64,000 bases of DNA from Promethearchaeia archaeon. GTDB lineage: Archaea; Asgardarchaeota; Lokiarchaeia; Sigyniarchaeales; SOKP01. The stretch is taken from contig JAHQWK010000008.1 in assembly GCA_029856145.1 (NCBI GenBank), positions 1 through 64,000 of the forward strand, given 5' to 3'. Each line of letters opens with the position of its first letter. Position 1 is the first letter of the stretch. The notes under the pieces are model-generated. The model saw only the letters and a list, made by a program, of their open reading frames with translations. It searched no databases and was not told the DNA's origin. Made by a program: the position numbers and the translations under genes. Shown one piece after another: positions 11,355 to 57,458 of the stretch.

Positions 11355-11407
11355 GGTGACACGAAAAATAAAGATTTGATAAAAATGAAAGATTATGGTG
11401 AATCCAA

Positions 11408-11635
11408 CTGACTGAAAAAAAACAAACAAAATATAAGAATGTGCAGGTGCCAGAATTGTTAATCGATACTATCCTTATTTTTATCCCTGATTTAGGATAT
11501 AGAACACATCATGAATTTATCATGGAAGCTATCAGACGACACGTTGGAGATGCGATTGACACGATTTCAAAACTTGATAAGCTGAAGGCCTCTAAAAGCC
11601 TAAAGAAGAAATTAAAAGAGATCGCTCTTGATTAG
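11408..11635 (+). CDS. ribbon-helix-helix (CopG/NikR-like) DNA-binding protein
   Basis: YKNVQVPELLIDTI...LGYRTHHEFIMEAIRRHV. The frame extends to a CTG at 11408, 6 nt after GGTGA, which restores the RHH beta-strand. Confidence 0.75.
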   Translation: MTEKKQTKYKNVQVPELLIDTILIFIPDLGYRTHHEFIMEAIRRHVGDAIDTISKLDKLKASKSLKKKLKEIALD

Positions 11636-12553: not shown

Positions 12554-12640
12554 ATGACAAAACCAACAAATATGCCAGTTGATTCAATCATAACCTTACT
12601 TCGAGAGTGCATTTTTTATTACCTAAGGGGAGGTTTATAA
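12554..12640 (+). CDS. 28-aa leader ORF translationally coupled (TAATG) to the ParB-like gene
   Basis: GAGAGGT SD, then MTKPTNMPVDSIITLLRECIFYYLRGGL; its stop overlaps the ATG at 12640. Confidence 0.4.
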   Translation: MTKPTNMPVDSIITLLRECIFYYLRGGL

Positions 12641-18964: not shown

Positions 18965-19255
18965 ATGGCTATAAGTAAAAATAGGGCGGAAATTAGTCGT
19001 GAACTGGCTAAATTTAATAATACCTTTTTGGACTCTAGACCAGCTTCTTCTGATCAACTATATAGAAAGATATTAAAGGTAAATTTTGATTCTCTACGTC
19101 CTATCGCGCGACGACAGATTGCAAACCTCATGAGACAATACAAGTATCATCCTCACAGGTCTATTTATATTTTTTACATAAATCTTATCATTTTAGATGA
19201 GAAAGTATTTCGAAATTTAAATTATTGTAGTTTATTTACAAAAAAAAGTGAGTAA
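18965..19255 (+). CDS. 96-aa basic protein overlapping the giant ORF; possibly its frameshifted N-terminus
   Basis: GTGAGGA SD-like site upstream. The ORF ends across the A8 run (19240-19247), and a 1-nt deletion there fuses it in frame with 19248. Confidence 0.55.
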   Translation: MAISKNRAEISRELAKFNNTFLDSRPASSDQLYRKILKVNFDSLRPIARRQIANLMRQYKYHPHRSIYIFYINLIILDEKVFRNLNYCSLFTKKSE

Positions 19256-22200
19256 AAGAATGAGTAAAACAGAAAGAAAGGAACCATCAGAATTGAATCG
19301 CTCTGTCCATCAGGATTCTGAACCTCCTGAAGTGGTGTATAGCAAATTATTTCAGGACGGAATAGCACGATATAGAATAAAAGAACATTTAGTTAAAGCT
19401 CATGAAAAAAAGAAACTTATCGACATTTTTTTCTTTGAGCTCTCTAAGGAGCCCTTACCAAAAGGTCATCTTGAATTCCTAGATGAGTTGATTTATCGTT
19501 CCAATAAGAATAAAAAACATACAATGAAGAAGAACATTCATTGGAGAAAAATCGATCTATGCCATCATAAAGAATCCCCAAAAGACTCTTCTCATAAGAC
19601 AATAATAGATAAAGATGAGTTTTTAGAAAATGCTATAGAAAACTTTTCAGATGATTCTGTAAAATTCCAAGCAGAACCTCAAGAATCCCAAGACTCTCTT
19701 ATTGAAGCAAACGATTCAAAAGTAAAAAAACAAATATGTCTTGCAAAAATATTTGCTCCCGATTTAGTCTTTATAGATTCTAAGAACACCTCTAGTAAAA
19801 AATCAAGACTCAAGAAATTTGGTAAGACCTTAGGATTTTCTGTAATTGTGGAATTGTCAGTACTATTATTTATAGCTCTTGCATATCTTTGCTTTCCAAT
19901 ATCCTTTTTCATCATCGAATATCATCTCGATCTGTTTATTGTTGTGCAAATGCTCTTTATTACTCTAAGACAGTTTATTCTATTTCGAAAGAAAGAGCGT
20001 ATCTTCCATGTTCCCCTCTTTTTTACCATAATAATGTGGTTGTGCGTTTCAATAGCTCATATATCATATAATCAATTGACCTTCATTGCCACTTTCTTTG
20101 GAGCTCAGTTCTTTTTCATATTATCTGAGCTGGTTTTATACTTTATGAAATATGATGTTTCAAGAAAGCAGGTTATTATCTTTCTATCCGTGTCGACATT
20201 GCTCTGGGGTTCATATTTTATTACCTCATTTCTTCCCTTGGATTTGAATTTTATGTGGATATATGTTCAGATAGGAGTGTGGTTTTTTGTCGCTGCTGGG
20301 ATTATTGTTTCATCTGTCCTTGGATACATACCAAAGCTCTTTAAATTTCTGTTTTCTCTCATTAAGAAGGGATGTGTGTGGATAGGAAGTATTTTCATTA
20401 GAATCGCAAATTCTTCTGCAATTGTTACACTTCGTAAAAAAGTAAAATCCTTTATTGGCCAAATTAAAATTAGAATCGAAAATATCAGAAATCTTCATAA
20501 TATTAAGCTCTATGTGAGAAGTGGAATACTTCTTGGTTGTATTAGCCTTGTTTTCTTTATAAGGTATACAGCTCATCTGGTAATAAATCTTGCCACCATC
20601 GGTATCCTCTTTTCTATATTAGCTGTTCTAATGACAGTTGGATATTTTCTTATATTCAGAAATACAGGCAAGACCAACTTTTACACTGGTAAGGATGATT
20701 CCCACGTTCAAAAACAAGGTATCTCCAAGGAATCCAGTGAAAAGAAACTCGAAGATATTATTGAAGAGATTTTCTATAAGTATGAAAAATACAAAAAAAT
20801 CCAACATCTTACTCCTGAAGATTTTCTTTTCGTAAGAATTGTAGAGAGTTATTCTGACTTAGAGTGGTCGTATAAGCAATTAATTAAAGAAATTGAACGA
20901 TCCCAGCGTTGGGTTAAGGAACATAATTTAAGATATATACTACCTCACAAGGTCTTATGGACGATATTATCTATTTATCTCCATTATAGAAACACAAGAA
21001 ATTATTATCCCGAAGGTTTTCTTTTCCTTAAGAAAATAGCTAATCAGAGATCACGTCACTCATTAGATAATATATCAAAAGAATATTATAAAGCAATTAA
21101 AAAAGAAGAAGACGCGTTACTCGAATTCCTTAAAGAAAATAAGAAGAAATATAAAAAATTTGAGGAGTATCAAGTTGAAGATTATTTATCATTATATAAT
21201 GATGATGTTGTAGAACCAAATGATCAAGAATTGAGTATTGAACCACAACTGTCTTTCCATTATCCTGCTAAGAATTCAAGAATTCACTATTTTAATAGTC
21301 CAAAAAGTAGGAAATTGTTTGACGCTTCGCAAATAATAGCAGATAATATTGAACAAATGGAGCAATATTCTAAGAAGAAAGGAAGTTTCAAAATTATAAA
21401 TAAAGTAATTCAGACACAAATAAATGAATTCACTTCACATGAACAAGAAGGATGGAAATTAATAAAACTAATATATGAGCTCAAAGTATCTCAAGATTTT
21501 CTTTCTGCTATAGTGAATAATAAGAAATTATTTACCAAATATCCTGAAATTGATCATCATGCATTCTTCCTCTTAATGCTAGCTCCAATCTTGGGGAAAG
21601 AATTGAATTTCTTAAAACTTACTCAACATAGAAAATTGTATCCTCCCTACTTGTGCTCTATAGGTATAAGTGCTGACATTTGTAATAGTTTAGTTTCCTT
21701 TTTACAAGAAATGGAACAGAAATATATAAATGCTAAAAATTGTCATTATTCGGAATTATTAGAATCCAATAAAAAACATAAACTCACTAAAAAGTTTTCA
21801 TATCTTAAAGAACAAACCATTACAAACGTAGAAAGAGAGTGGTTGGATTATAAACAAGGCATAGTGAGGGATGGTGACACGATAAAATCTATCTCGCCTA
21901 TTCGAAAGAAAGCACGTACTCATATTCTAGATCTCATATATAACAATACTGCGATTGATTATGGTCAAAATACCCCAGAATTCTTCTATCTAAATAATGA
22001 TAAGACAAAAATAATCAGAAAAGAGCTATGTGAACTAAATAGAAATTCAGAGCTCCTTGTTTTTGTTCACGCACGTGATTATATTAAAGAAATAATTGAT
22101 TCTTATATTAATATCTATGAAGAACATAAGAAGGTAATATCTACACGAGAACTTGAGAGACCAAAAAAACAGAAGTCATTCGAACCTGTAGAATCTAGGC

Positions 22201-25200
22201 AGGTTATTGGAAGCATTTTAAAATCAAGTATCGCATTAGCTATCTTTATAGTACCATTTTTCTTACAATTATTTTCTTCAGAGACTAAATTTTTCTATGA
22301 TTTTCTTTACTTTGTTCCATTTTATCAGGTATTAATTTTTGCCTTGTTCCTTCTTATTTTTACTTTTAATATGAAATTATCGCAATCTCGCCAACTTTAT
22401 ATGATACTGGCTCCCATTTTTTTGGTTCCCTTTATCATAGGCATGCAGCATATATTACCTTCTATAGTTACGGTATGTATTATACCTGCTATGATTATTC
22501 CAAGTTATATTATTTTCAGAGGACAACCAATAATTAGACAAAGAATCTCTAAGAAACGAGATTGGTCAAGATTTAAGAGTTTCTCTCTACACAATTTTTA
22601 TCATAGATATAAATACGCTCTTTTATGGCGATGCTTATTTATCCTTACTGTTGTATTCTGCATTTTCTTTATTTTTTTCCCTCAATCACTTTATATTGCT
22701 GCTGGTCTGTTTATAGTTTGTATATCTGTTTTTACAAAAGAAAATAAAGTGAGAGATAATTCGAACCCTCCAAAGTATAGTGCGAGAATGCTCAGAAACA
22801 CACTATTGATCGCTTTCTTTCTCGTGTTGATGCCCTTAATCTTTACCGTAAACTCTATGATCAGACTTAACAGTCCACAACTTCAGTATGCACAAATTCC
22901 ACAAGATTCAAGAATTGAAGGTTCATGGGTGGATTATAATTCTCTACAATATTATGACTCCTTAGAGAAGTTCAATGAATTTACCATTAATGATGCATTC
23001 CTTTCTCGATGTGAGATCTCTACGGGTCTTGGAGAATCAGCGGGAATGGAATATAATTTAATTCCGATAGACGTGCCCGAAGTTGAGGGATATTATATAA
23101 AAGAAATTTACTCAATTGCTTCAAGGCGTATTAGTGGTCCATTAACTAGATACGATCTGATTGGGGAAATTCATCTTAATCGACTTGATCTTCTTCCAGG
23201 AACCTACGAAATTTCGACGTCGTATAATGTTCAAAGTGGGTTTGGCAAAAGATATGCAGAACCTGAAGTGTATGAAATTAAAATAGTAAAAGATAAGTTA
23301 AGAGCTCTCCCAAATGAAGATTTTGATCTCGAAGTAGACTTTGGGGCCGTCTACACGTTGAAACAAGAAGGTTCTTGGAATGTTCTCTTCGATGGACAAA
23401 TTGTAAGCAGCTTGAATGAACCAATCCCGCTCGAAGATTTGGATCTTTTTATTGAAGTAAATGATCGATGGCAAGAAGTAGCCTCATTAGACACTGATAG
23501 TACTGCTAGATTTTACTTTAATCACACGATATATGGCTCAATTGAACAAAATCTCTTAGTAAAGATCGAACATGAAGGTAATGAATTCTATAAACCACTT
23601 GAACATATTGAGTATGCGGGAATTGAATGGAATACCGCCGATAAGTTCTACTTTATCCAAGACGAGTACGGCAATATTGAATGGCCTTTCAACCTCTATG
23701 ATTTACTTGAAGTATTAGCAAGTTATGCTGAATCACCCCTTCCTTCTTCATTAGATTTTATGGCTGAATTTGAGGAGAACTCGGGAACAAGCACCTTTGA
23801 TCGAGTTCATAATTTGGAAGGTCAGCTTCGCGGAAATACTTCATGGACTACAGGAAAACGAGACTATGGGTTATTATTTGACGGTGACGGCAATCTTGGT
23901 GACAGTGGTATTCCAGCTATAGAATCGTGGACAGAAAAAGGGAGTACAACAGGCTCGACAACCTTAACATTAGATAAGCCTTCTGGGGTTGAAGTAGGTG
24001 ATTTATTACTACTCATCGTAATGAATGATGATACGTCTGCAACTGCTTTTTCAGATAATAAAGCCGGTTGGAATTTCATAGATACTTCTGGTAATAGTGT
24101 TTCTGATGCCCATATTGCTGCTTTTTGGCGAACTGCGGATGGAACGGAAGAATCAACTGAGAGTGTAACTTCCGCAGGGGCAGATGAATGGATGGGATAT
24201 TATCTTAGGATCACGGGGGCTGATGATACAGATCCAATCGATGTCTATAACTTCGCCCAATCTTCATCAAGTAGTAGTAATCATGTTATTCCAGCAGTTA
24301 CCACTACCGTTGATGATTGTTTATTGCTTTATGGGTTAAGCTTTGATGGAGGAGATGGGTATCAGTTCAGCGTATCGGGAACTGGATGGTCGGAGGTTGA
24401 TGAATATCAGACAGGAACGTCTGGCGCGGGCGATGTGAGCGGAAGTTTTGGTAGTAAGGTTCTAGCCTCTCAAGGTTCTTCTGGAGATGCTACAGTCGGT
24501 TGTAGTGTCTCAGACGGTACTGCTTATTTTCAAATCTCGATTGCACCAAGAGGTCTTACTTATGAAGATTTCGATTATATAGGTTTCGGAGATATTTTAG
24601 ACAGTGCCCTTGGGGATTTAAATAACGAGTTTGTAATCTCAGGCTGGATCCGGCCTACAGTATTTTTATCAAATCAATCTGAGAATGGAATTCAAAATTG
24701 TTTTGTTTCCAAGAAAGGTATTGTAGAAATTGGTGTAAATGAGAGCGGGTATTTACAAGTATATTTGAATACAAATAATGTGGAGACTGCTGCGACCTAT
24801 GGCTACCCTTATGCCGTCCCTCTTAATGCATGGACATATATAGCTGTTCGTTATAATAATTCTAATGTAGATATCCTCATAGGTGACACATGGTGCCGTT
24901 CTGCTCTTGGAGGAGTGAATGAACCATGGAACAACGGAGGAAACCTAAAAAGTGGGGGTGCTTTTATTGTTGGTGCAGAGACAACCTCATATTCCTGTTT
25001 TGCTGGGAAATTAGATGATATTTCTGTGTTTAATTCTTCAATATCTGACGCTGAGATCGAAAGTCATAGTAATGGTCCTGTAATTGAGATTGACGTAAAA
25101 GTATATAAAGAAGATAGCCAAGATGTGTGGACTCCCATAACAACATCAGGTGAAATTATAGATGGATATCTTCTTTTTGAAGTTAACAGTACTGGAAAAC

Positions 25201-52200: not shown

Positions 52201-55200
52201 AGAGATTAGGAAAGACAGCACTGCCAGTTTCTGACCTCGACAATTTAGGACATGAATCAACAAAATTTGGAACCGATTGGGTCTATAATTTTAATAACCT
52301 ACGTAATTGCAGACTCTTATGGGAAGAATTGACACCTTTAGAAGAATTAGGGTTAAAGCCAAAAGATCATATTTTTGAAATTTATAAACTTGTGGAACCA
52401 AGTGAACAGAATAGTAAATTCTCTTCATTATTCTACGATGTGAGGCACGAAACCTATTCAAATGCGTGGGAACAATATAGGAAACAATTAGTAGGAGATA
52501 TCATTGAGCAAGTGTTTATGTCCGTGACTGCAGGAATTCTTAGCGCATTTGTAGAATCTACTATATGTATAGCAACATTTGGCTTTGGAACAGCTCTAGC
52601 CAAGTTTTTAGGCGCACTTACATACTTTTTAACATACACTTTAATGACTAAGCTTTCCATCGATATCAAACTCCAAGCATCTCAAGCACGTGAGCGTTCT
52701 AACACCTTTTATGCAATTTCACAAGAGAATTATGAGCCTACCTCACTCAACCATAAAGCACCTGGTGATAGATATCTTCAAGATTCGATGGCGGCAGCTC
52801 TTATAGGACATCCCGGAGGATATTATACCACAATTAGTGGAGGTGAACCCGGAAATCAATATACCGCTCAAGCTTTAGTGAGTCCGCCAAATCTATACCG
52901 TGTGAGAAACGCATTTGCGGGATTTGGTGCTTTATTATGGGGAAATTTATGGAACATGGGAGAATCCGACCCTGATGTGTTTACAGCTCTTGATTTTGAT
53001 GATCGAAACTTAGACTATCTTCTGCATACCAGCGAGCTACCATCTTATAACCAAAAAGAACATTACACGTACGAAAACACTGTGAGATCTACCAACCTCT
53101 ATAATATTTATAAATTTACCACATTAGGATATCTCGAGAATGAAATAAAGGATGCTTCTAATAATCAGTTAAATACCATAAGACCTACATGTGTTGATGG
53201 ACAACCCCTTTATGAATTTGTAGACGGAGATCAATATGAACAAGTATTACCACAGCAAGTATTATTTAGACCAATTATTTTAAGTGAACGACGTTATTCT
53301 AAATTAGCACCAGTATCAGGCCATCTTACTGTTACTACTCAATGTAAGGATTATGGAAATACAAAAGGTGTAGATCCATACGAAATGACACCTTTGGAAG
53401 TTCAAGCAGGGTATAAAGCAAAGATCCCTCTCATGAATGATAGTTTTTACTATCCATTAATATCAGTTATTATTGATATCGTGAAGGAATCTGACTCTGA
53501 GACTGGACATTTCGCAAAGAATCTCATTATCAATAGCTCGTATTATAGGCTTGATTCTGGGAATTTATATTTCACTAAATCACTTGAGACAATCATTTCA
53601 GAAAAATATCCTGAATTTGAGACGGTATTAAGCCAAACATGGATAGAAGAGTTCCTTGATTGCGTAATTTATTACAATGTTCACATATATTTTGAAGTTT
53701 TTGTTCCCGATACTACAGAACAGACTCATCAATTAGCATTAGCCCAGACGACTTTCTACACAATCATGGATTATTTCAATCAGTATACTTATGCAGAGGT
53801 TTCGGCAAATATGATTTCAGAAATTGCATATACTGAGACACTAACCTTTTGGTCTACCTTAATCAGTGCCCCTCTTATCTTTTTAGGCTCTTGGGCTGTG
53901 AAAGGTTCCGATCAAATGATAGGTAAAGCGGGAATGGAATTAGTGAAAGCAGGCACTTCATCTATGCAACAACAAATCCGTAAAATGCTTATTAGACAAG
54001 TCATTGGTATAGCTCTAGCACCCCTTCAAGAAGTCCTTCAAGAGATCATCCAAGATGGCTTTATGGAGGCTGTAATTGAGAACGTGGTAGATATTTGGGG
54101 CTATTCAGATGATTTAGGATATTGGCTATCCTCGTTAGCCACTTCAGCGAGAGAAACGACAGGCGCATTAGGACGATTAGCCCTTGGTATTGATAACGAT
54201 ACGAAGTTAAACTTCATGTCTATTTTATCTTTAGCAAAAGCGAGATTAACTGGGGATACTGAATTAAGAACCAATGTTATGAACAATCTCCAGCAAGAAC
54301 AACAAGCTGACCTACAAAGACAAGCAGAAATGGGCATGTGGCAAAAACTCTGCAAATCAGGCTTTCTCAAAGGCTTTCTCATGCTCATCCCAAGCCTCTT
54401 TTTCGGCTCATTTAGCTTCATGTTCATAACCAGCTTTACGAATATGGTTGAAGGAGCGACTTCACTTGGACCACAGCTCTATAGCGAGTATAAGGCTAGA
54501 AGACAGGTGAATGAACATACTGAAGCTAAGACTGAGTTAAACTCCATGCTCAAAGATGACCCATCTATGTCTATGGACAATCTGTGGCTTAAAAACATGA
54601 GAAGACCTTCCAATCCCGATATAGAAGCTCTTAATAATCGATTTAGAGAACTTCAGCAAGATCCAAATGGTGATACAAAGACCGACTTAGAAGAATCTCC
54701 TATTGTAGATGTTTCCAGACTTACTAATCCCAACCCTAAGATTGATGAGTTAATACAACAATTCAAGCTTACAGACAAATTCCAAGAAATTCAAATAAAT
54801 AGTTGGATTTCAGAGCTCGGTCAAGACGCTCGTTTTGAGAGTAAGAAGGCAGAGCTAAAACGTGTAGCTGAGAATAAAAAGACAATTGACTTCGCCGGAC
54901 AAGTTGAGGCAATAAGAAAAATTATAAGGAATGCCCTAGAAGATTATCCGACACAATTAAGATATATGGATTATACAGGAGTCGTTCTCTATGACCCCAA
55001 GCATATAGGGTTCGGATTCAGATTAGGGCCAAATGCAAATCCAAAGATTTCTGGAATTTTACAATTCAGGGAAGATTTTCCTGAAACGCTGTCGACTGAG
55101 GATTACGCAAATGAGTTACAAAAGGCTTATGACGTTAAGACGCCTTTACAAGTTTGCTTATATAAGCAAGGAGAACTGATCTTAATGCCTAGAACCACTC

Positions 55201-57458
55201 AGTCTCATGCGGAATGGTTGAAGCAACACGGACATAATATCAAGACAGATAAAATTGTATTGATTCCAAAAAGCAAAGTAAGCAGTTTTAAGAATAAATA
55301 TCTTCCGACATACTCTAAGGGTGCTTGGGACTCTTCAAAGACCAGTCCTTACTTCGCAGAATTTAAATTGTTTATAGACGCAATAGAATCTACTTTAACA
55401 TATCATAGCGTAATTAATAAGCGGTCTGATATTAACACAATATTAAGGTTGAGTGAAGCCAATCCTAGTATCGACACATTAGATAAAGAAATATACCTCC
55501 TATCTAAGACGAATTTAGACGGTACTCCTAGTTCTAGGGTTAATTGGAATAAAGCAGAGGAGACACTTAACACATGGCTTGTCCGAATCCTTAATAACAT
55601 TGAATCAAGCTCAAGAATAGCTCCAAAAGATAAAGGTAGAGTGATACAGTCAATTAAAGCAATTTTTAATAACTATTATGAAATTTCAGGCTATAAATTT
55701 AAACATCCATTATATCGGGATGCAAAATTAACACTTTATCAGGTAGGTGAAGTATTGACAAGGATAGGAGCCATGACCACATTTTCAATTGAGAAATTAG
55801 ACGAATTACTCAAGACTGTGAATAAGCCAGGAGTTAGTAGTCTTTATAGGAACTTACAGAGGAATTCCGAAAGTAGACCTAGAACTACGACGGTTGAAGC
55901 ATTGCGCGATAACATTATTTTAGCAGCTACAAGTGCTGGCATTAGCCTTACCAAATCTCACGAGAAGCTCATCCAAGATATATTTAATGCTTATAGAGAT
56001 AAAGTTAATGACTTTAGATTAGCTAAAAATCAATTATCCGGTTATGATAGGACTTACCGACTGGAATTGATTCAAGATTTAATAGATAAATGTGGGCCCC
56101 TCCGACATGTATTAGCGATATCTATACGAGATTTTAACAAACTAGTGTTTAAAAAGGATCATAAATCCTTTACTGGAGGTTTCTTGAACCCAAGTAACGC
56201 TCGGGATCGCCCTATGCATAACACCATATTTGAGATTATCTACAATTCGGATGATTGGTCTACAAAGACCTTTAAGGATCTTGGAATATCTATGTCATAT
56301 AGTGAACTCAGGCAAATGAGAGCTGATATCAAGAATTTGGTGTTTGATTGGATTATTAAGGCTAAATTTCGACCTGCGCTCTTCAATACAAGACTTCTTC
56401 GAACTTCCAACTCTGTCGCTCCAGAGTTAGATCTTGTCTATTCTCTTTGGGTTGCTGCTAGGCGAAAGACTGGTAGCCCAAAGTGTGATTTCGAAGCAAT
56501 TTATAAATTACGATTGTTAGGTGATAGTCCAATTCAATATAATTTAAAGGAAGGCAGTGTATTTAGTGAAGATTCTTTGAAGCTGTTTAAGCTTACTATA
56601 CAGAAGTGGCTAAGGCGAGAAACCGACATTAGGAAACCAAGCCCAGACAGACGTAAGGTTGTTGCTTATGAAAAAGCGCTCAATAAAATCGGATTTTATG
56701 CACAAATCCGTAAGAAAGACCTCAGAGGCAGTCCAAAAGGAAGATCTCCTAGCACTCGAGGAGAATTTAATAAAGAACAAGCGAAGGTTTATAATGTTAT
56801 CCTCGGTTTGGGACGTCATTTAGGGTTCGATCCTGCTTTCTTTAGACCTGTTGAAGACCAAATGTTTGACATGAATGCTGGAGTTAAACAAAAATTGAAG
56901 GCATTAGGAAAGAAGCTTTACATATACGTCCGACATCATTTCAAGAACAATCCCGACCGTGCGTCGATCTCCATCATGGATCAGGTTATCACCCACTCTG
57001 GTACTCACTTTTACTGGGAAAATCTTATATCAGAAGATGAAGCACTCGTAGCAATCCAAGTGCTTGAAAATCTTGTAAAATATAACCGTAGGATTGATGC
57101 GACAGATATAAAAAATGAATTCAAGAAATTTGACAGGGAATATAGGTGGATTATGGCAAACTGGTTAAATGATCCAGATTTTGATGAAAATCTAAAGAAA
57201 TTTAACGATAGGAAAGATGATATTAAAGCTATGACGATTGACGAATTCATCTATACACATTATCGAAAGACGTATGATAAATTTATTAAAGTCTTACTGA
57301 AGACAGAGCATATTGGAATTCTAGCCATCATTCAAGCTATGCATCCGAATGTTGATGTTTCAGGATTGGTGAGTCTCGGGAAAAATAGCAATTACATAGG
57401 ACCTTACTCGACAGTATTTGCTGAAATCTTGAAGATGTATAAGTATCCGGTTTACTGA
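19248..57458 (+). CDS. giant 12,736-aa membrane-anchored surface protein with LamG, H-type-lectin-like and Ca-binding modules and a putative C-terminal HNH-like nuclease toxin
   Basis: 38.2-kb uninterrupted ORF in AT-rich DNA. TM clusters at ~19830-20660 and ~22200-22860; acidic, sequon-rich stalk at ~22860-50800; DxDxDG loops at 50790-52100; hydrophobic helices at 52500-54440; basic tip to the stop. The confidence is for the CDS and its architecture; the toxin role is inference. Confidence 0.85.
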   Translation: MSKRMSKTERKEPSELNRSVHQDSEPPEVVYSKLFQDGIARYRIKEHLVKAHEKKKLIDIFFFELSKEPLPKGHLEFLDELIYRSNKNKKHTMKKNIHWRKIDLCHHKESPKDSSHKTIIDKDEFLENAIENFSDDSVKFQAEPQESQDSLIEANDSKVKKQICLAKIFAPDLVFIDSKNTSSKKSRLKKFGKTLGFSVIVELSVLLFIALAYLCFPISFFIIEYHLDLFIVVQMLFITLRQFILFRKKERIFHVPLFFTIIMWLCVSIAHISYNQLTFIATFFGAQFFFILSELVLYFMKYDVSRKQVIIFLSVSTLLWGSYFITSFLPLDLNFMWIYVQIGVWFFVAAGIIVSSVLGYIPKLFKFLFSLIKKGCVWIGSIFIRIANSSAIVTLRKKVKSFIGQIKIRIENIRNLHNIKLYVRSGILLGCISLVFFIRYTAHLVINLATIGILFSILAVLMTVGYFLIFRNTGKTNFYTGKDDSHVQKQGISKESSEKKLEDIIEEIFYKYEKYKKIQHLTPEDFLFVRIVESYSDLEWSYKQLIKEIERSQRWVKEHNLRYILPHKVLWTILSIYLHYRNTRNYYPEGFLFLKKIANQRSRHSLDNISKEYYKAIKKEEDALLEFLKENKKKYKKFEEYQVEDYLSLYNDDVVEPNDQELSIEPQLSFHYPAKNSRIHYFNSPKSRKLFDASQIIADNIEQMEQYSKKKGSFKIINKVIQTQINEFTSHEQEGWKLIKLIYELKVSQDFLSAIVNNKKLFTKYPEIDHHAFFLLMLAPILGKELNFLKLTQHRKLYPPYLCSIGISADICNSLVSFLQEMEQKYINAKNCHYSELLESNKKHKLTKKFSYLKEQTITNVEREWLDYKQGIVRDGDTIKSISPIRKKARTHILDLIYNNTAIDYGQNTPEFFYLNNDKTKIIRKELCELNRNSELLVFVHARDYIKEIIDSYINIYEEHKKVISTRELERPKKQKSFEPVESRQVIGSILKSSIALAIFIVPFFLQLFSSETKFFYDFLYFVPFYQVLIFALFLLIFTFNMKLSQSRQLYMILAPIFLVPFIIGMQHILPSIVTVCIIPAMIIPSYIIFRGQPIIRQRISKKRDWSRFKSFSLHNFYHRYKYALLWRCLFILTVVFCIFFIFFPQSLYIAAGLFIVCISVFTKENKVRDNSNPPKYSARMLRNTLLIAFFLVLMPLIFTVNSMIRLNSPQLQYAQIPQDSRIEGSWVDYNSLQYYDSLEKFNEFTINDAFLSRCEISTGLGESAGMEYNLIPIDVPEVEGYYIKEIYSIASRRISGPLTRYDLIGEIHLNRLDLLPGTYEISTSYNVQSGFGKRYAEPEVYEIKIVKDKLRALPNEDFDLEVDFGAVYTLKQEGSWNVLFDGQIVSSLNEPIPLEDLDLFIEVNDRWQEVASLDTDSTARFYFNHTIYGSIEQNLLVKIEHEGNEFYKPLEHIEYAGIEWNTADKFYFIQDEYGNIEWPFNLYDLLEVLASYAESPLPSSLDFMAEFEENSGTSTFDRVHNLEGQLRGNTSWTTGKRDYGLLFDGDGNLGDSGIPAIESWTEKGSTTGSTTLTLDKPSGVEVGDLLLLIVMNDDTSATAFSDNKAGWNFIDTSGNSVSDAHIAAFWRTADGTEESTESVTSAGADEWMGYYLRITGADDTDPIDVYNFAQSSSSSSNHVIPAVTTTVDDCLLLYGLSFDGGDGYQFSVSGTGWSEVDEYQTGTSGAGDVSGSFGSKVLASQGSSGDATVGCSVSDGTAYFQISIAPRGLTYEDFDYIGFGDILDSALGDLNNEFVISGWIRPTVFLSNQSENGIQNCFVSKKGIVEIGVNESGYLQVYLNTNNVETAATYGYPYAVPLNAWTYIAVRYNNSNVDILIGDTWCRSALGGVNEPWNNGGNLKSGGAFIVGAETTSYSCFAGKLDDISVFNSSISDAEIESHSNGPVIEIDVKVYKEDSQDVWTPITTSGEIIDGYLLFEVNSTGKPIETLELYLSDTEPNLQNPNPNDWNLVTSFNYDNSLYSYVANSWDLPDDPSFYFVVKATDDLNNAVYDYYNTYFGINHFDELVNFTYLDKQGRINHNSEIGVSPREGFEGHISSLNVYINYSDDIDFLTNVEYNDLYSNYWLIYLDSLSDWVTNKSLTPDNYNVNFIIEANLTYGTGFPFYTYNYTLEQITLDIEGPAMTLLSGIPYSLTLGKTYDNIQENMITMGISSTDFDFYKVKIEYKYQTPTTADWLTYGTFYADNTSLAEILFNIINLRDDSIVFRFTGYDDLNNEYILSDSSYWIIKDLNNHEFFTIEGLNSTILYGLDVNGMIDIELKVLPVDNDITKVTISTNYESFSLTNAVSELDYLYFEDDGVEDVDIKLNSTYYNIFGSDFVFIPVSVKLYQGTTWITSESITICVITDSFDFPVEVSNLTVNLSSDEDNIWMSFVTGRDAYNNSHSIPFIPNNNPPVLKVYNSHNELVEIIPLWAYLDSSDTEVYNSGVIEIIDNKFTVSLPTPASGELCSIEEVDVNGTAYDFSYFINRKNNNLLITLITSETLDGTYGSLAPISIDYGISTSVKTSDQFVGSFNFTILPQDSYTFKGEFYDISGSISTFAISEPIAIDFSGPEIYPQFLTLNSTINPETSTISFVINDFSGVDSYFFNTSISGYWNVISNIYTFFFNDSAIIEGLTHIKFTCNDTLGYTSDLLLLLIFDRSNPQFSGVSTTDTIANDLFEIYVNVTETSDYSLTIQFTHNNSGTIFTNIDFTLIELFENEWYFTFDSAQLQDGYYDITIFATDSGGNSNNTIIEDIYFDNTFAHVTAFEEYIYVETENIYNNTISDELCFNEEEFIAITAFDEMFDDFDWSQIDQTLADQLGVKNITLYYSNPLTWYKISISSTLNYEQFTYVITGYDDPINTNIQNIKGIQSLTINNYTVDEFDVLLDGTKILLKIDEKYRYLLSSQYTDHIYAQFYEFIPENNIVLDFNAALSRWELKSLDLNYFNISDYLNLTEGDEFLFWFVIEDGLENTLHSHKMRGVFDNTMTQDPVDQNVFEWFLGTNSTGSGMFIFGSDNYLDSTIQVNVSSVVPTFLGEVDIGRIMLYGSNDTTTWQYLGRAYFTGEENMWNYYWDYDPVNIIPSENYNIKALLFDRAGNYLAHSHALKLYDYRTITLLTELVFGHIFEYNSSALTNENEIEGVIEDLFGSTDLWDLIAQFYDPLRKEWVPMTTNPATILSNGSYSITWDINEDDEFKASMYDFTYEYLPLQVVSPVSSDLWGSWGLFGDNTEWQPIIISETSSNVDITIFEFSNTTGWQVDSALSTEAVIPSIEGQVFKLWDINNNDKYEIIRISSSQIDVIYFNSTSEWVIKQNVTGLSEYSYYAFDIEYEGKTSNTLLTVIQKDSTQAFSIWKYEFETNYDLTHLDHCDAPLNFIPSAIKIVNDFSASDRKAILVSGLIEDSYYSQLFEYDFNLDIRNVLVNAILGEVVVVEYDEISGIDTIILGITRSAVGKKDAVVTLRRKSGTEKWVNFEVSGFDDVRFEILDLITIADNNLRKLIIGSKTGIYQTRITFEEDTTEITSPICYTFTTFSKGELSPIYYPEIEVTQLPLQKPIHKVNYIYYKVSGSSQWQILERSNFRYSRNSILIDLLSIWSNLEYIKIVYSYESFVSEERTAIDPSFQSYHGVSDTQTISASAMFFDETALPFLWYNPATISNLNYLPNSMTYQYTPVISGLGNKVFYPTIRSEVGSEYSNMPELENSLIYYGDSYDSGQLSQYLNSKDDYYEETMFGGNYENNYIDQLWLSNPYISENFNFTDMYYSQIHDDSSTSGLYNYYDTAQQVLVRNRLTDISPYNASYALIYDSGSLPTSMTRYNLSTVDYGTLGGWNTGGEVLYTQVNDTNYYEMESEHYDSGPPWYLIDIETLHAYFKIVGGYGGGDYYISCYIETEGTTNAKLKVNYDTLESGAVIDIKDAYIQNVNSIYYSFEEDEPHDTITAKVYYFKVEKVSSDSPAVQGASMEELEDVLLDWDQYISTYKDEYGIFGFEYTYELPVVSRESLQSLQLAFDATLSSTSFVQEYPLSIQLYNFETSQWESIPLAALDGIYTYNDDKLDYDFWRWTPNNESTDSMVKFEVGEITLDDTIDQSESESITFENIYNNPVVVAYIKSRDNDESVDVRVKDVTSTGCTIFMEEPDNGAHSSGESVGYMVIEAGEWEFPDGTEIKAGTVSTDIDHYYGGSTTVGVQVSFDTAFSATPVILHTLNTYENGAFKSTASHTISSSSFKVCQETAETGISTSTETIGWIAIESGKTGTFQGVKYETGRGNDGNKDGFDDDGHTFTFSQSFSSAPIIITKQNSLNAGNGAWARSYGTLSSSSHITCSEEDQVGDSERSHNDETFGFIAFEESLYSIGSTDDRFRPIWGTQNVESINTVSYGQTFPSSIDNDGNLVIDNSLKQGANFLVNTKDNSSVNNFFSDSYKFLTFDTSGYDASKYQLKNIIINITNFYTSASDFPSYQDSQSFALKNFYEEFLNDLHEFKIRVITQKENAQDEDALAYLCIGDFNTYTQTTTNYLNYEEFESNAIQGYHVSDKLEFTEDGIQLSGMSGFNTKDAPETQKFRDNFQTSTWNLLGASEPDIIFTESIEQDAMTRSLHPNSNYNSQEFDLSSFKISNPFTYCLWQDTIIKGTEIASYPDDTRYDDITYQIYGANLYGSNYEIQVQDNYDFEGAKTWDLEYLMFTDINVDSIKLYSDSGTIDETINGNTLSGTARVEDLKELYISTTDNLDHEISVDLLIYTTVVEEYETYIETQSFNYNYLTSGNNDMRELIVTRPSSLVYQGPYIYVYSTGGFDETIVTWNSRPATYDLLSQAEGLDDSTPITFPINLGKITENNYFKIDATDGGIDYYNDPPVRFTIGKKHQEGSLMYMQTNITETLKLKSAVYPSSTIITKNDQIVIDCKAATNSEVILTLFSEGEFVRNFTVIEQGNQDYSSQILVFTTNETIQFDQLQFTSTLGKEQYFVVHSIDVIAGASVIDAKLWTYDFTGRNLYSSNTVEETSSNFALFQDNLYYNLTSGWINDQYEIQIEFEFILPESEMTDVDKIDINLVGTGTGVSLGGAKFKYLNLATGPYEKIEYTNTGDTYTFSIDNVQKIFDSSSATYQVHFLITLGSSDIFTVHIDSVNAITYKEWSAQHDLYRASFVFERIHSNNNASVTIAVSDEISLTIEDSKLYINGYDNIMSFYYNCTEQQWHAYLNEETTDLLVNATESEPTPKLRIESNYNSTSYGIIVKSIESQYYKRVRDSADFEEYKSVLASYRAVQGHGEVIELDSRDANITPENTFAQVCADVDIIYSFHDDMQEENIFSYELIPTFSSSSFDNLTSVVYDETGFIFSSVSDLTIYNVTSVDGDVTKTSGDLSDLNEKDDYNWVKFDSAWNTERYDNSPEFYKTPSGASGSPSEPDDWDIRDEGTCREYTVISGTSSVKAEDIFSFNGLPSWAGSAKDKEIEVKIWWDDSIGATLKYCKLYVMDWGDPYDTDDTYVEKASFYEAQWDTRTISLASGNINRWLDYNTKLYQTKIKIETYVEASLLPALDVNIEYLYLDFKKDDKDTSAVEFEFDDLINGENDFYVYFRGKTDGLDFTSKLLIDGVEKLSFNNTFEEYAGFVSDVDSIKVWIADDGEIYHPSLDNREVILDYLVVKWVNEDINFTVYNKDSILLNSSLSHTQASSTPIDRGFVEYNQYFGKNTLHFTLKNSIQTPIFGRNNSLIYADLDLTDLDLDFTLFPDESYEDFPTEHQNVEGKNSTQYNTDILKDYNEYSNSRFKNSAIDDIQIPLMTPIEMDFGDINLDDFSDIDLEIVLDYGLALQNRAKNSEWSWRFRLIYYNYTSGAWEDFKGLLRAKNMGYERSVWDPSKNFAMYLQNPEVNDFIPILDDNDIQLKNPILIDSITNDTLSDGIFKLAFVSYILPGNLSIMGEIYQGECFSYEREDPLVPISISQTVNMLECILISESREIIYPESSVVVNLELNENLKANLSSISNLGEIVAVKGRYIDNKEILYEYPIHSYWVTAEDELAFNSPMKYLFTNVTIEYVPQLALNYNATDGYWYLPNNVFIASRNFSQPFFVSSLCVNNTFYGTYIHPDVDVGYTVGFLGNRTYVKFAENIHPDSTVKGAVHFAKVGYKYLYKFSLKDELLYSYNILNEDTPLIDGIFHIELNAGFKDVIYSELSQVACEDYQLFINITRVDTYTGETRSIGYSSIELDSSLLGYHLYNLDVSLDEFTFVSNGRDLLKEAITRGTHYDLQVTLESSISNCIVDGHLFKGMYAHELLIASFEIKTEESEMKFNGDQVQTPYIPIPQKSIILARLDTAMYQFSDLDYSFDFLIDAIRTEKYALYENIDYIFDSSQSTIILIGEYRDYSGYLFADITYKAFEWKEGSVSSLEPITLTFDNDYGRNISKFLEFSLQYNLIPGYELEKVDYTSGRLVLANEEKSSALMNIYLYNFNDNKWDKIEFVVYDDYTGTNTFSYVVDRNFITFEDYFNKTTGDEFEVKAVLAVEEVIGDYFVSQASFGITSINASIYYDTPDTEHTINPEIEFDVDLTEFFTGDSKYLEQIKVDLQFSGEIEFDSAFIFSQYALLEENYNFYIRNKYLDFEQFTLEDNTIILSREEINRLIFHDIENEKYYLRAKLEYDWTCILEMNLGSNSRLEIVSTLNLIKYDLSASYTSYETTRISAQEIDTPYDLCEIIAPDYIETDSGISVLESDNEIDIGIFGGFLRNANTRQRLMVRQQLYYTFNESTSGPQAILLDQEYTDAILRFLIPLGYLEQPYTYLINKTYFTFITDFEVIDVKLYRYNGVSDVFVANMTPHSTKVGIFEYTWDDVEGDTETTSGDTVELMFLLTDVFENTGSYRYNFTTDFNPPNPEISIGDGSESFEDCTADPTTSLTFTHTEEGLYTEYYRIIDNMLGSTTDWIKFNSTELLILDDLAILPENFTIEYNVIDAAGNENITSIYNYNYQYITFSREKSITLTDDTIDLNGFSNREISFTDTGQFNNSQNLDVYINGFRYGTAYLDSGSYRLSFGNENSKETLIAYSDSLLSDYIYSNINPLNHISWEVREDEYYAIVKHVLVDSDIVITNPLTYNITTEFELEHLYNRGFGLSDYMRIKQVYYINASDGSKIPLTLGPDFIVYEETGIVDFPEYSVVYNLYESISEVKDGIIYFEYDASPFADQLRLSNADGFFINFTMPSVYYEHTTIEKLVISLNDFAGNSFAKVYYDIDLRQYFLDNVKGQYEEDIFGLGKMMTIPLYIDLNEIAISNIDKQFDLKLLKSVSITVSDHERWPGSFIQNFENYSVMNLPYQRIGVKDIKLYNLISDTIEADEQGYVSASIMFRASDYYNLFAEAEFNIKKLDIEFTNTKAYAYNQEIDTSVDMEYSDFIELNYRWNNSLAQVLLNDIVYLPVSMINATSGEELGYSTANWITKFDYDSLSNYLTKYYYSKFEVPKTLGEIDISFSSPGTSLFNITFIDAPTIALNVTQESLSTDPIYLPETDYELEYGHTLLLEGAILDNDEYLVEDKVYNYKYQEALDGKTTHALDIVSPYGDPDFIDREEFAIYYVNDELKILPLFSTLNGRYFTNKTILDYNEDPTISYIDNSFVLNIYWRKNSTNFIHYDTNLLITHKVVNGKPISPISYSSLDSFGNDKQQNLMEIPFARYDMLTKNWVTQDTFTQQFRIDKVLLFEDVESSGTTIRGPSFEVGQNNITTGIIDIGDIYENKTDSEIFELVDEEEYSWLINTNGELVVSGLPYVSGDTFKISYYAYYPVAIPHSLNSPSSSIVYIKVINNSGYEFEFALNTDYKFSEDGYSVYFLDLYNSIIKSGNFSIFNTFEVKYTAPLTRKVDLSTNILLMLQDNLGNDIPIDVIPIDNLGFFEYEQVLREDSPLSIPLGGGKKLVHMLLSYLPLSVHNKSSGTSISISYSDPEFGNIYPYIESNSWAKPITILTIPDNVKLTMVEDPLDNIVFSQKYFEERDYVYNYNPMEALEEGEEYTKVMIDALVQQEYTFAFKLTTAEGKSINNSIVWAHIGLLPKSEKQFLNDRMVIEDLGISPYFEALGTQEITFIGPGESPNKMFGKPLLYETDGYNTNYSAYGPYYWLYSTTNENGEATFEVSFDQDYLTDFTDIFGSREGFDSVEDVVLYLRVFNSYFDWDEFEIDTPNQYLCSKDGMIYNGSTALNNYNFDKLALQDSTYVEGLIRLHKKDISVATNDYYSYQLPDADLGQNYEPLTLHLRVHEASPIPNGEATNIESLTKVYTSSELEPLPVNILKGDYTYYAAIQFYTPSGTLVETLYKAIEPAYNDGIVEIDNETVYTILDKLGPGISTLKIQILESESYKASPVIIIPIEIQPSNWIKFGQKNSQIDLINPFVSAWGVAYNGADEMPFESCYPHLIGSMWVEPFFNATGGDESIQDYIDINLDCTIYNDDGTTSTFPLQSNIMLRPGNWDGILTFDIGLGPESAFLMGLQCDLNLSFSIDFNSDKIFEDQRDVSIYLLDLRLEAYPSSSTPITTWSIYDDGFSDTTIKVKELDTVSTNTGTLDLGGTQSGVVYGQEVAFLFDNSTLDYALNAESELLNLLALDGIEVMKVAGIKDGDEYSFIKDTDYSIPYASSGILANESAIKFLGNDVPDEGTEFSITYKLKFDFDTNKYGVITLGYTSNENVSSIELQLHEDFLPTSNSSYSPLFIQFTDRFTGTGSQTEFTVNYGLSGVSSWSSDYFVIYNEQELIDNYGSFTKTVSSGRPKLTFSTAPPNQAKVNITYGIKSQYNLSYGFQKVDKPYSSSVRLIQNDDYSPSIKDEANNELATYSLSDPSMYISLDDSAEKTLLKLLNIPLLYDPEINMTFAFDGVLLDLIDSFDTDFNNLTIQFKYITNDGYYEFYSDPMVIPLDYSEISPDIVDNSYVIYYNKDLQAIYDMVGASSFDIEIILSQVGSSDNYIPYILLEEFEYISNTHIVENFGSMPLDKYGNMDTKAIVNSPHYYQTFSRPFIDSVYGSSPFNLIDGSQVTVGLQNLPNCTLISMDSDGETYNFNYLGDSSTLTVNNTNFYMIPNVAMYIDTYGIEETLYQDGYLDLYYGSGTEIDGEERYTANILMDYESSAIEDYRSSISNKVPTSWEDTYNFTNQFITTDIITVQGRVFYHQVFDLDTDTNSSSYINDIFPNYPNTIYFGLQLPDNFDVAQIKKVGEPYEYALSVHGFPTGKYQDKYCRLPETYSGPLPETEYVLTSSDYALEFYENGTAYVLFFKPANELSSYTDDENRIMIDYWINHEFLKNSDYSIHEDPNDPFTSQIDWDFAFTSLDTYHLHPDFDNDAFFTVEYSALEWEIFDSQYIHNGTDDFTFQPREYYNVSVLYTGGTSDLFSVQYIVPEGQYHDDEVLLSYLYALAQKGDDEETMEVFCVPNTETVNSIEQNAADSYNYTIYFSTIETYIKDTYGQDYELVDNSYVYVAAKYFTTQLRYSLSHTPFNYEYLSAGNNPYHIALYIDDTFIAYSYESTFDDYVEKIEDEYIYFHNRSSGEDGYIAPLSKIHLEYKFKLQPGLLDRKNFLIVTYPWTNQFNTIMDSIPAYREEYRKLSGGSIISPFEYSLSIDNKYSMYLTYRLNQRDYYEEKFEIASEHYKSSVNGYVYEFMTQELDNYVDVIEANGEEALSVYYFDGFSKMRFLDSTHYEINLAQREIVIKNDGNPLASPNGLSEFYVSFIPDGPDRTFSSYKFSYEKSSNMADTLQMPYWDVLEVEGVDVVPNLDAFYFMSENESSINNIVCYASQIAIYLSDNTEKLEFNIDGALTGFDEDIINDIHTGEFLALYIDTNIKNIESLDYLTIELYDSSDSLISGFTQMITREELELYDHNIRIELPTSTNTLKKIQFIPTFRSDDEYSSNNNIGIARYQTLQWDSELVSIMEDGQKYMHVELEHDLKTNNSQLAYIYNDKLEYLTFPENVSISYTLENYTSTISKYILHIPVKYVHPTTNETEGFREEQTLVLRYNSPVDSGIAMGIGNMYFEAKGYNYAAHPDLPKAEFMLVTANDSSVYSEFLDDYYYQNSLQLTPFDTEYNNRYKSVKIDLNLTSLYDSTGKNILNFTHLIFSVPNPTYELTISEVVILEETLDASEEYGSIDSRLWQYTEAESFIASAAPENDEYQLTLENTPIFYPSLEWLDYLTIYDEEGNYYTAGITGNDHQLHFDSATSKFTWNPSFNQFPEYFGMEFEEPLIVNPNITLYFEYATNTSWAQPILLEVENIDLSSIRVIYDYNYLLKPEFYEWYSSLYNMDHSYENIAYSFKEESEYRVVQYYYEGFTVYTSSSEYTHTFNIGDLSFENDFVNLSLYKVVGITPTLDYEILTDNTNYTITFNKATKELKITDLNSGNGLLDTFDQITVILNYSCAPISSYTEIYLRKEFNQTYLSDPKDTFYNYVDIDYKYTTTTGVLFAENSAILTSDTTSFISIDYSRNADMSASNKLIGYGSELYDNFEIYYDDTSILYVADVDMDGDPDYKLTIDVDGNGELDIIKYGIDDPQGSGEIYWHTVIQDFENYQVSVENDLGEEKRTQWFDIDDRIFARFDFNVGKLLLYALCLPLLPFYITKMMLPDVDYWAQKSVQNEVRKEEHVYVSYYSIKVDNDRDGLPDTQVDYESTDIDIYYEIMEYRETILAAKTQNIFTILGEYVARSISSLFDGPRNDIVFNKYLTKDHLESGNFSSCHWYVRANAPVLTSTYRKFTENVTTTYIDSFSKSTLTVIDFDDEGEIEEQRTYTDDFENFEVGLDEFFSDLVEEHSITDINTGQESEISFDPDLPFTHFENLTWDTQTWGPDGVPVKYDSLYVEGDGYNYTSNAFEKTIILRIPNRYSLYEDYGVTSRYKTRNSGWAEFTATGMLIRPLDGKVYYTSDAEAFAEGTAKTDGFYFYVDSDSNGFYETVYILSDTYLRTDASGLLQFNVMAIGYNYDGYHDLVPYERLGKTALPVSDLDNLGHESTKFGTDWVYNFNNLRNCRLLWEELTPLEELGLKPKDHIFEIYKLVEPSEQNSKFSSLFYDVRHETYSNAWEQYRKQLVGDIIEQVFMSVTAGILSAFVESTICIATFGFGTALAKFLGALTYFLTYTLMTKLSIDIKLQASQARERSNTFYAISQENYEPTSLNHKAPGDRYLQDSMAAALIGHPGGYYTTISGGEPGNQYTAQALVSPPNLYRVRNAFAGFGALLWGNLWNMGESDPDVFTALDFDDRNLDYLLHTSELPSYNQKEHYTYENTVRSTNLYNIYKFTTLGYLENEIKDASNNQLNTIRPTCVDGQPLYEFVDGDQYEQVLPQQVLFRPIILSERRYSKLAPVSGHLTVTTQCKDYGNTKGVDPYEMTPLEVQAGYKAKIPLMNDSFYYPLISVIIDIVKESDSETGHFAKNLIINSSYYRLDSGNLYFTKSLETIISEKYPEFETVLSQTWIEEFLDCVIYYNVHIYFEVFVPDTTEQTHQLALAQTTFYTIMDYFNQYTYAEVSANMISEIAYTETLTFWSTLISAPLIFLGSWAVKGSDQMIGKAGMELVKAGTSSMQQQIRKMLIRQVIGIALAPLQEVLQEIIQDGFMEAVIENVVDIWGYSDDLGYWLSSLATSARETTGALGRLALGIDNDTKLNFMSILSLAKARLTGDTELRTNVMNNLQQEQQADLQRQAEMGMWQKLCKSGFLKGFLMLIPSLFFGSFSFMFITSFTNMVEGATSLGPQLYSEYKARRQVNEHTEAKTELNSMLKDDPSMSMDNLWLKNMRRPSNPDIEALNNRFRELQQDPNGDTKTDLEESPIVDVSRLTNPNPKIDELIQQFKLTDKFQEIQINSWISELGQDARFESKKAELKRVAENKKTIDFAGQVEAIRKIIRNALEDYPTQLRYMDYTGVVLYDPKHIGFGFRLGPNANPKISGILQFREDFPETLSTEDYANELQKAYDVKTPLQVCLYKQGELILMPRTTQSHAEWLKQHGHNIKTDKIVLIPKSKVSSFKNKYLPTYSKGAWDSSKTSPYFAEFKLFIDAIESTLTYHSVINKRSDINTILRLSEANPSIDTLDKEIYLLSKTNLDGTPSSRVNWNKAEETLNTWLVRILNNIESSSRIAPKDKGRVIQSIKAIFNNYYEISGYKFKHPLYRDAKLTLYQVGEVLTRIGAMTTFSIEKLDELLKTVNKPGVSSLYRNLQRNSESRPRTTTVEALRDNIILAATSAGISLTKSHEKLIQDIFNAYRDKVNDFRLAKNQLSGYDRTYRLELIQDLIDKCGPLRHVLAISIRDFNKLVFKKDHKSFTGGFLNPSNARDRPMHNTIFEIIYNSDDWSTKTFKDLGISMSYSELRQMRADIKNLVFDWIIKAKFRPALFNTRLLRTSNSVAPELDLVYSLWVAARRKTGSPKCDFEAIYKLRLLGDSPIQYNLKEGSVFSEDSLKLFKLTIQKWLRRETDIRKPSPDRRKVVAYEKALNKIGFYAQIRKKDLRGSPKGRSPSTRGEFNKEQAKVYNVILGLGRHLGFDPAFFRPVEDQMFDMNAGVKQKLKALGKKLYIYVRHHFKNNPDRASISIMDQVITHSGTHFYWENLISEDEALVAIQVLENLVKYNRRIDATDIKNEFKKFDREYRWIMANWLNDPDFDENLKKFNDRKDDIKAMTIDEFIYTHYRKTYDKFIKVLLKTEHIGILAIIQAMHPNVDVSGLVSLGKNSNYIGPYSTVFAEILKMYKYPVY

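Follow-up and report, generated by a model that had tools for sequence, protein, structure and literature searches.

Our results suggest that a 12,736-residue protein of a Lokiarchaeia-type Asgard archaeon is probably a self-anchored, contact-dependent polymorphic nuclease toxin, and that the small gene lying just downstream encodes its cognate immunity protein. The stretch of DNA analysed here (hereafter the window; 64,000 nucleotides) had been described in an earlier note as encoding a protein with the layout of a tethered contact-dependent toxin. Comparative genomics supports this toxin-layout interpretation and points to polymorphic-toxin logic on an archaeal scaffold; transfer between cells, DNase activity, toxicity and neutralisation are inferred.

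The giant gene constitutes a single open reading frame (ORF) whose translation contains no internal stop. Its start codon is GTG, with an in-frame ATG four codons on, at 19260, and the G+C content of the genome is ~33%. The single protein announced in the earlier note is therefore a real uninterrupted ORF, and every feature listed there from the sequence alone was found present. Halomucin of Haloquadratum walsbyi is a very large archaeal surface protein of 9,159 aa, and the remark that the protein studied here exceeds it is true by length. It is not the longest archaeal ORF, since the open frames of relatives extend up to 20,619 aa (genome G206, contig C13), and proteins of the family range from 9,000 to 20,600 residues. 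Other relatives display frames of 14,833, 14,557 and 14,473 aa, and the G206:C13 frame (locus L062) spans 20,619-20,625 aa with its module at 138726-142454; given these far longer frames, the window's protein is mid-sized within its family. The giant gene, its parts and the gene that follows it are located as follows:

19248..57458 (+): giant gene, ORF of 12,736 aa.
19248..19847 (+): N-terminal basic soluble region, aa 1-200, presumed cytoplasmic; 4 sequons vs 1.0 expected.
19848..20657 (+): first cluster of about 8 hydrophobic helices, aa ~201-470, from hydrophobicity.
20658..22202 (+): basic loop of ~515 aa, aa 471-985; pI 9.0, 2 sequons vs 3.3 expected.
22203..22862 (+): second cluster of about 6 hydrophobic helices, aa 986-1205, from hydrophobicity.
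22863..50420 (+): acidic sequon-rich stalk, aa 1206-10391, from pI and sequon count.
24615..25058 (+): Laminin_G_3 / concanavalin-like lectin domain, aa 1790-1937; Pfam E 1.7e-11.
31644..31769 (+): H-type lectin match, aa 4133-4174; Pfam H_lectin E 3e-6.
50421..54464 (+): conserved family module, aa 10392-11739, present in 51/134 family genomes.
50799..52076 (+): four DxDxDG Ca-loop-like motifs (aa 10518, 10532, 10651 and 10938), from motif.
52515..52652 (+): Gly/Ala/Ser/Thr-rich hydrophobic hairpin, aa 11090-11135, from hydrophobicity.
53835..54452 (+): hydrophobic helix aa 11530-11552, amphipathic helices aa 11575-11660 and hydrophobic helix aa 11703-11735.
54465..57455 (+): swappable tail, aa 11740-12736; pI 9.4, 0 sequons vs 7.4 expected.
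55056..55295 (+): ubiquitin-like beta-grasp at the linker/cargo junction, tail residues ~198-277, from structure match.
55317..56714 (+): all-helical cargo domain, tail residues ~285-750; model pLDDT 80-95.
56637..57344 (+): predicted HNH (beta-beta-alpha-metal) nuclease-fold domain, from motif, model and structure search.
56934-56939 (+): His-His pair of the HNH domain.
57006-57008 (+): helix His of the HNH domain.
57510..57956 (+): 148-aa basic CxxC..CxxC zinc-ribbon partner gene, presumed immunity; co-directional ORF.

According to Kyte-Doolittle hydrophobicity, hydrophobic clusters are located at aa 205-462 and 986-1205, and the first 1,200 residues have a pI of 9.3-9.5. These about 14 hydrophobic helices in aa 200-1205, together with the basic N-terminus, agree with the multi-pass transmembrane anchor with basic cytoplasmic loops read earlier from the sequence; the N-terminal part common to other giants of the family corresponds to the second cluster only (aa 986-1205, 6 helices). 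The stalk (aa 1206-10597) displays a pI of 4.1 and 136 N-x-S/T sequons vs 110 expected, and its Pfam matches are Laminin_G_3, H_lectin and a weak Big_13, as anticipated for the acidic, sequon-rich stalk with lectin modules. Most giant adhesins are tandem-domain builds, unlike this stalk, in which BLAST at E 1e-4 found no internal sequence repeats along its ~9,200 residues (window 22863-50420). No known bacterial secretion or trafficking domain was found by Pfam in the giant protein or in the neighbouring genes, and searches of Pfam, NCBIfam and PADLOC recognised no family for the tail, the module, the N-terminus or the partner, the three stalk domains being the only matches. That neither the tail nor the partner matched a toxin or immunity family in these collections weighs against the toxin reading.

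Beyond the stalk lies a module of ~1,350 residues (aa 10392-11739) for which the search of 134 other genomes of this Asgard family gave matches in 51, often in several copies per genome, with 37-66% identity over full-length matches. The check proposed in the earlier note was whether homologues conserve the 50.8-54.5 kb region and vary at the tip and the downstream gene. This is the pattern that we found: the module region (50.4-54.5 kb) is kept across homologues at the identity given above, and tails and partners vary by class and co-vary with each other. The same holds for three paralogues in the window's own genome (G000), which have the module in common and not the last ~1,000 residues. 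The Ca-binding loops claimed previously are present as DxDxDG-type motifs, and the Gly/Ala hydrophobic helices were located as well, both at the positions listed above. Across 26 homologues, the hydrophobic-helix parts of the module are short of sequons, with islands that tolerate them at aa 10742-10840 and 11292-11440; a helix region and a tail both poor in sequons are as expected if the helices insert in a membrane and the tail threads through it. The ESM Atlas, queried with the module's helical stretch, returned nothing better than an uninformative score of 0.76.

In order to compare the region beyond the module, 37 family members were taken with their downstream DNA, which together with the window yielded 38 tails. 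Their length varies from 670 to 1,880 residues and their structure is mosaic: the first ~100-270 residues form a shared linker, beyond which the tails belong to unrelated classes, separated by sharp junctions. For instance, L046 and L053 share 69% identity over 100 residues, and L001 and L003 share 65% over 105 residues, both pairs being unrelated thereafter. The modules nearest to that of the window (57-66%) bear tails that are at most 25% identical or unrelated, and the tails nearest to the window's (62-64% identity; genomes G225 and G182) sit without any module; thus, the histories of module and tail disagree. The earlier note had named invariant and non-toxic homologous tips among the results that would speak against it, and the tips fall instead into unrelated classes. 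The window's tail (aa 11729-12736, pI 9.4, 15.5% Lys+Arg), which corresponds to the Lys/Arg-rich tip noticed at the outset, was found only in its own family when 400 genomes of the phylum were searched, in 33 of the 134 genomes. Of 15 other tails searched with Pfam, only two gave a match: L060 contains a ubiquitin domain, and the tail L064:4946-7141:- (G274:C37) matched PBECR1 weakly, at an E of 1.6e-4 that falls below the cut-off. A stand-alone 809-aa tail homologue with its partner in G225 has neither signal peptide nor transmembrane helix, which indicates that the tail domain can exist as a soluble cytoplasmic protein and weighs against the toxin reading.

The window's tail is organized sequentially as a linker, a ubiquitin-like beta-grasp, a helical domain and a domain of HNH fold (whole-tail model pLDDT 70). 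The earlier note had proposed that the tip carries a DNA-acting domain, and the predicted structure of its end is that of an HNH-fold domain. The alignment of the class displays the invariant motif RHHFxxDPxxKxSxxxxDxxxTxxxxH, with the conserved histidines of the domain at His824, His825 and His848. A word-indexed homologue search with the whole tail gave 5 proteins, whereas an exhaustive search with a profile of the last ~236 residues gave 210 cluster representatives among 1.84 billion, with the HNH domain at or near the C-terminus among the matches listed. The AlphaFold model of the domain, built on 80 sequences, has a pLDDT of 88 and contains strands 97-101 and 116-120 followed by helix 121-130, with the His-His pair ending strand 1 and the third His in the helix (model residues H100, H101 and H124, at least 90% conserved in the 80 sequences). 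The model thus displays the beta-beta-alpha-metal core with a strand-1 His and a helix His/Asn that is expected of HNH nucleases, and curated sequence profiles (Pfam, NCBIfam, PDB) gave no match. The best match in the structure search was Cap5 (Z 6.0, rmsd 2.9 over 92 residues; further Cap5 entries at Z 5.5 and 4.5), followed by IscB, several Cas9 HNH domains, McrA, T4 endonuclease VII, and retron and Cascade HNH proteins, such that HNH nucleases make up ~25 of the best 35 rows. Foldseek found no match in the PDB at E <=0.001 for either the whole-tail model or the HNH model, and PDB profile searches with alignments A2 and A4 gave nothing significant. With Z values of at most 6 and no Foldseek match, what speaks for HNH is the motif, the topology and the predominance of HNH entries among the structural hits, and we regard the modelled fold assignment of the tip as good but not certain.

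Regarding the other parts of the tail, the beta-grasp matches RA, FERM-F1 and RAWUL domains (Z 5.5-6.8, rmsd 2.3-2.9 over 61-71 residues), and the helical cargo domain had no convincing structural match. In the G274:C1 tail (L060:4039-7203:+), Pfam recognises a ubiquitin domain (PF00240, E 1.1e-7) whose span, tail residues 235-294, sits where the window's tail has its modelled beta-grasp. Cleavage of the ubiquitin-like domain at Gly-Gly was considered and rejected, as the beta-grasp ends in (D/S)KI(V/Y)(L/V)xP, with no Gly-Gly. The stretch that follows the HNH core (model residues ~113-191, within window 56637-57344) matched EF-hand regulatory light chains at a non-significant E of 0.3, and relatives have a 'GSGPNxEIT..D' loop after the core.

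The small downstream gene mentioned in the earlier note corresponds to a co-directional ORF of 148 aa, located 52 bases downstream of the giant gene, which encodes a basic zinc-ribbon protein of CxxC..CxxC type. Such an arrangement is common in the family, given that in 31 of the 37 members a co-directional ORF follows at a distance of 28-130 nt, and the partner families track the tail class, with leucine-rich-repeat (LRR) proteins as partners of many other classes. Among the 29 matches containing the window's HNH domain, 24 are directly followed by a zinc-ribbon gene, and in about 10 of these 24 the tip is a truncated or stop-ridden remnant beside an intact partner (tips of this kind were found in G182, G193:C18, G198:C39, G215, G230, G252:C221 and G266). 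Furthermore, the partner family extends far wider than the tail, being present in 89 of the 134 genomes with up to 14 copies per genome, and the window's genome carries three extra partner copies for one HNH domain only. Intact partners next to decayed tips, along with surplus copies, are as expected of antidote genes. The three extra copies, with no detectable adjacent HNH domain, are C4:22778-23269 (+), C30:71050-71541 (+, with an in-frame stop) and C22:1169-1471 (-). Tandem zinc-ribbon genes, 80% identical, follow one giant gene at L050:7027-7365 and 7415-7753 (G241:C77), and a similar pair occurs in G266:C2.

Two traits of the partner weigh against the toxin reading. HNH tails of the same family are also paired with LRR genes (L058, L077 and L084), so the pairing of tail and partner is not one-to-one; and the zinc-ribbon protein is basic, whereas many nuclease toxins are countered by acidic immunity proteins that mimic DNA. 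Complex prediction with the helical domain of the tail, the HNH domain and the zinc-ribbon partner gave 0.51, 0.00 and 0.00 in its runs, an outcome that speaks neither way on binding.

One particular trait of the tails is the avoidance of N-glycosylation sequons. In the 38 tails, which are mostly unrelated to one another, 4 N-x-S/T sequons were observed vs 315 expected (1.3%), and 35 of the tails have none; for the window's tail, the absence of any has a Poisson P of 6e-4. N-x-C is likewise absent (0 vs 7.3 expected), whereas the non-acceptor N-P-S/T is over-represented (24 vs 9.9), and control patterns are normal, namely [ST]-x-N (294), N-[ST] (300) and N-x-x-[ST] (343), each vs 315. The N-P-[ST] excess (loci L001-L084 and window 54465-57455) looks as if proline had disarmed former sequons. 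In an independent set of 145 metagenomic representatives, 35 sequons were counted vs 362, with 362 also in the reversed control. Other sequences of the same genomes do not show the depletion: the observed/expected ratio in ORFs of the window's genome is 0.91 for those without transmembrane helices and 1.29 for those with them, partner genes contain 61 sequons vs 69 expected, a frequency of cytoplasmic type, and the presumed cytoplasmic N-terminal parts of the giant hold 6 vs 4.3 expected, the first 200 residues in particular being not purged. A sequon purge accompanied by normal controls indicates that the tails come into contact with the extracellular glycosylation machinery and have to be kept without glycans. 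On sequence grounds, such selection against oligosaccharyltransferase acceptor sites would make sense only if the tail lies on the outer membrane face, free of glycans.

The gene neighbourhood was also inspected. An actin gene of 381 aa (window 58273-59418, - strand; PF00022, E 1.5e-132) is convergent to the partner gene and is part of the evidence for an Asgard host of Lokiarchaeia type, and in G225 two actin paralogues (L081 2620-3765 and 5333-6493), 99.5% and 93% identical to the window's actin, adjoin the stand-alone tail/partner cassette; the order tail, partner, actin is thus conserved between two species. A mobile-element context was considered and rejected, as there are no tRNA genes in the window and the flanks are housekeeping genes (actin, FrhB-like and Fe-S proteins). 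Upstream genes (window 1863-2384, 12607-13974 and 14596-16077) include those for NYN-domain, ParB N-terminal-domain and NosD/beta-helix proteins, and the 778-aa and 563-aa neighbours had no Pfam match.

In the mechanism that we propose, the N-terminal multi-helix block would serve as the anchor in the membrane of the producing cell, and an outward stalk, formed by ~9,200 acidic and glycosylated residues that include lectin-type domains, would present the distal module to a neighbouring cell. The ~1,350-residue module, with its Ca-loop motifs and glycan-free helices, would then bind and breach the neighbour's membrane; the exchangeable glycan-free tail would be the cargo, which would enter the neighbour and cut DNA; and the 148-aa zinc-ribbon protein would act as cognate cytoplasmic immunity, protecting the producer and its kin. 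The more specific proposal of a delivery machine made of a single polypeptide, i.e., an anchored filament of 9,000-20,000 residues whose distal glycan-free helices thread a swappable cargo of up to ~1,900 residues across the membrane of another cell, is put forward tentatively, at slightly less than even confidence.

Three other explanations were weighed against a contact-dependent toxin. The protein could be a two-ended surface loop, in which the helix at aa 11710-11728 re-inserts in the producer's membrane and the basic tail lies in the cytoplasm as an output domain that signals, binds DNA or connects to the cytoskeleton, regulated by the zinc-ribbon protein. That helix is hydrophobic enough for a stop-transfer anchor, comparable to some N-terminal helices, so sequence-based topology alone leaves a cytoplasmic tail possible, which weighs against the toxin reading; moreover, the pI of the tail resembles that of the cytoplasmic N-terminus, a soluble stand-alone homologue lies by actin genes in G225 just as the window's gene neighbours actin, and the L060 tail contains a Pfam ubiquitin domain. 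However, cytoplasmic sequence is under no pressure to shed N-x-S/T, and the tails retain 1.3% of the expected sequons vs 91% in cytoplasmic ORFs and 6 vs 4.3 in the N-terminal parts. The earlier note had stated that it would fail if the late helices simply returned the tip to the producer's cytoplasm, and it is this sequon count (4 vs 315, with normal cytoplasmic controls) that argues against such a return. A surface loop would also leave tail swapping and orphan partner genes unexplained; we consider it very unlikely.

The sequon evidence for an exported tail, together with its nuclease fold, would also fit a surface-tethered extracellular nuclease for nutrition or matrix remodelling, whose partner, of cytoplasmic-type sequon frequency, would be a cytoplasmic inhibitor or an export chaperone (cf. 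barnase/barstar, NucA/NuiA), and whose stalk lectin domains could bind polymers. Yet such an enzyme has no obvious need to shun glycans over 700-1,900 residues beside a sequon-rich stalk, and it leaves unexplained the swapping of tails among unrelated classes, the decayed tips by intact partners, the up to 14 partner copies per genome, and the glycan-free hydrophobic helices ahead of the tail; we find it quite unlikely. Export, swapping and partner linkage fit any delivered cargo, and therefore also a non-lethal device for delivery or recognition, with cargo passed to kin or syntrophic partners (kin recognition, DNA exchange or manipulation) and modulated by the partner protein. Many tail classes have no recognisable toxin fold, and in the window ~750 of the 997 tail residues are not nuclease, as this explanation would allow. 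On the other hand, tails of this class conserve a terminal predicted HNH domain whose catalytic motif is intact, and decayed tips with intact partners are a pattern typical of antidotes that are retained against the toxins of others; we consider a non-lethal function unlikely. A contact-dependent nuclease toxin with its immunity protein is the explanation that we retain.

If the single-polypeptide delivery machine proves true, an archaeal route of cell-to-cell protein transfer would have been assembled from unknown parts, and could serve for warfare among kin or the manipulation of syntrophs; if delivery is real, Asgard cells would exchange large proteins by contact, which bears on competition and on partner cells. 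The family is lineage-specific and multi-copy, and occurs in the archaeal lineage closest to eukaryotes. Further, the sequon purge constitutes a purely computational marker for exported, unglycosylated archaeal polypeptides that could find other exported cargoes. No paper on this giant family, or on any contact-dependent or polymorphic toxin system in Asgard archaea, came up in our literature search. What is new here is the scaffold, the candidate translocation module, the tail classes and the partner families, with the zinc-ribbon proteins as a second partner class beside LRR.

Compared with halomucin, by description and not by sequence, the window's protein has a multi-helix N-terminal anchor, a non-repetitive stalk and a toxin-like end. 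Asgard proteins exceeding 3,000 or 10,000 aa have been recorded (Wu et al., 2022, PMC8813620; West-Roberts et al., 2023, preprint, 10.1101/2023.11.21.568195); these works list giants without function, and the module, tail swapping, partners and sequon avoidance do not appear in them.

With CdiA, the giant shares the order of anchor, long stalk, distal binding/translocation region, toxin and immunity gene. The single-polypeptide analogue of CdiA and polymorphic-toxin logic proposed in the earlier note thus finds its counterpart in the same functional order and in co-varying partner genes, a likeness in logic only. Pfam searches of the 12,736 residues and neighbouring genes detected none of the CdiA features (TPS domain, FHA repeats, VENN or other demarcation motif, CdiB-type transporter), which places the giant protein outside the CdiA family; the cell envelope also differs from that of CdiA hosts.

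Polymorphic toxin systems have been reported as rare among archaea, and the few archaeal cases have been taken as bacterial imports (Zhang et al., 2012, PMC3482391). Five of the features that define polymorphic toxins in the sense of that work were found here on sequence or model grounds: a large, presumably exported multi-domain protein with an N-terminal anchor (helices in aa 200-1205, then the stalk); a C-terminal domain replaced on a conserved body (module 37-66% identical, unrelated tail classes); a predicted enzymatic fold of toxin type at the C-terminus, with modest Z; a downstream, co-varying candidate immunity gene, judged by linkage (31/37 loci; 24/29 HNH tips); and orphan or displaced tip-immunity cassettes (the decayed tips and the stand-alone tip/partner pair of G225). 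Like CdiA-CT/CdiI, Rhs and MafB (PMC3482391), the giant combines a conserved body with a recombining C-terminal domain, and it resembles polymorphic toxins further in its putative HNH-fold tip, its adjacent small downstream gene and its orphan tip/partner cassettes, whereas it differs from them in its archaeal host, in the N-terminal transmembrane self-anchor and non-repetitive stalk, in that no known trafficking domain was found, in a module unrelated to known pre-toxin domains, in a zinc-ribbon partner that matches no immunity family searched, and in a tail of ~1,000 residues vs 100-300 (PMC3482391).

With respect to the tip, the modelled domain shares the beta-beta-alpha fold, the strand-1 His-His and the helix His with HNH / His-Me-finger nucleases (Cap5 of CBASS, Cas9, IscB, McrA and colicin-type DNases); unlike known HNH domains, its core is embedded in a helical scaffold of ~236 residues specific to the Asgard family (210 cluster representatives) and without a profile match. 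Bacterial Tox-REHH has been described as a case of deeply divergent HNH toxins that escape annotation and pair with several unrelated immunity families (2026 preprint, 10.64898/2026.09.22.753552). These multiple immunity families parallel the zinc-ribbon and LRR partners found here, and the LRR partners at sister loci recall the Imm-LRR class named in PMC3482391.
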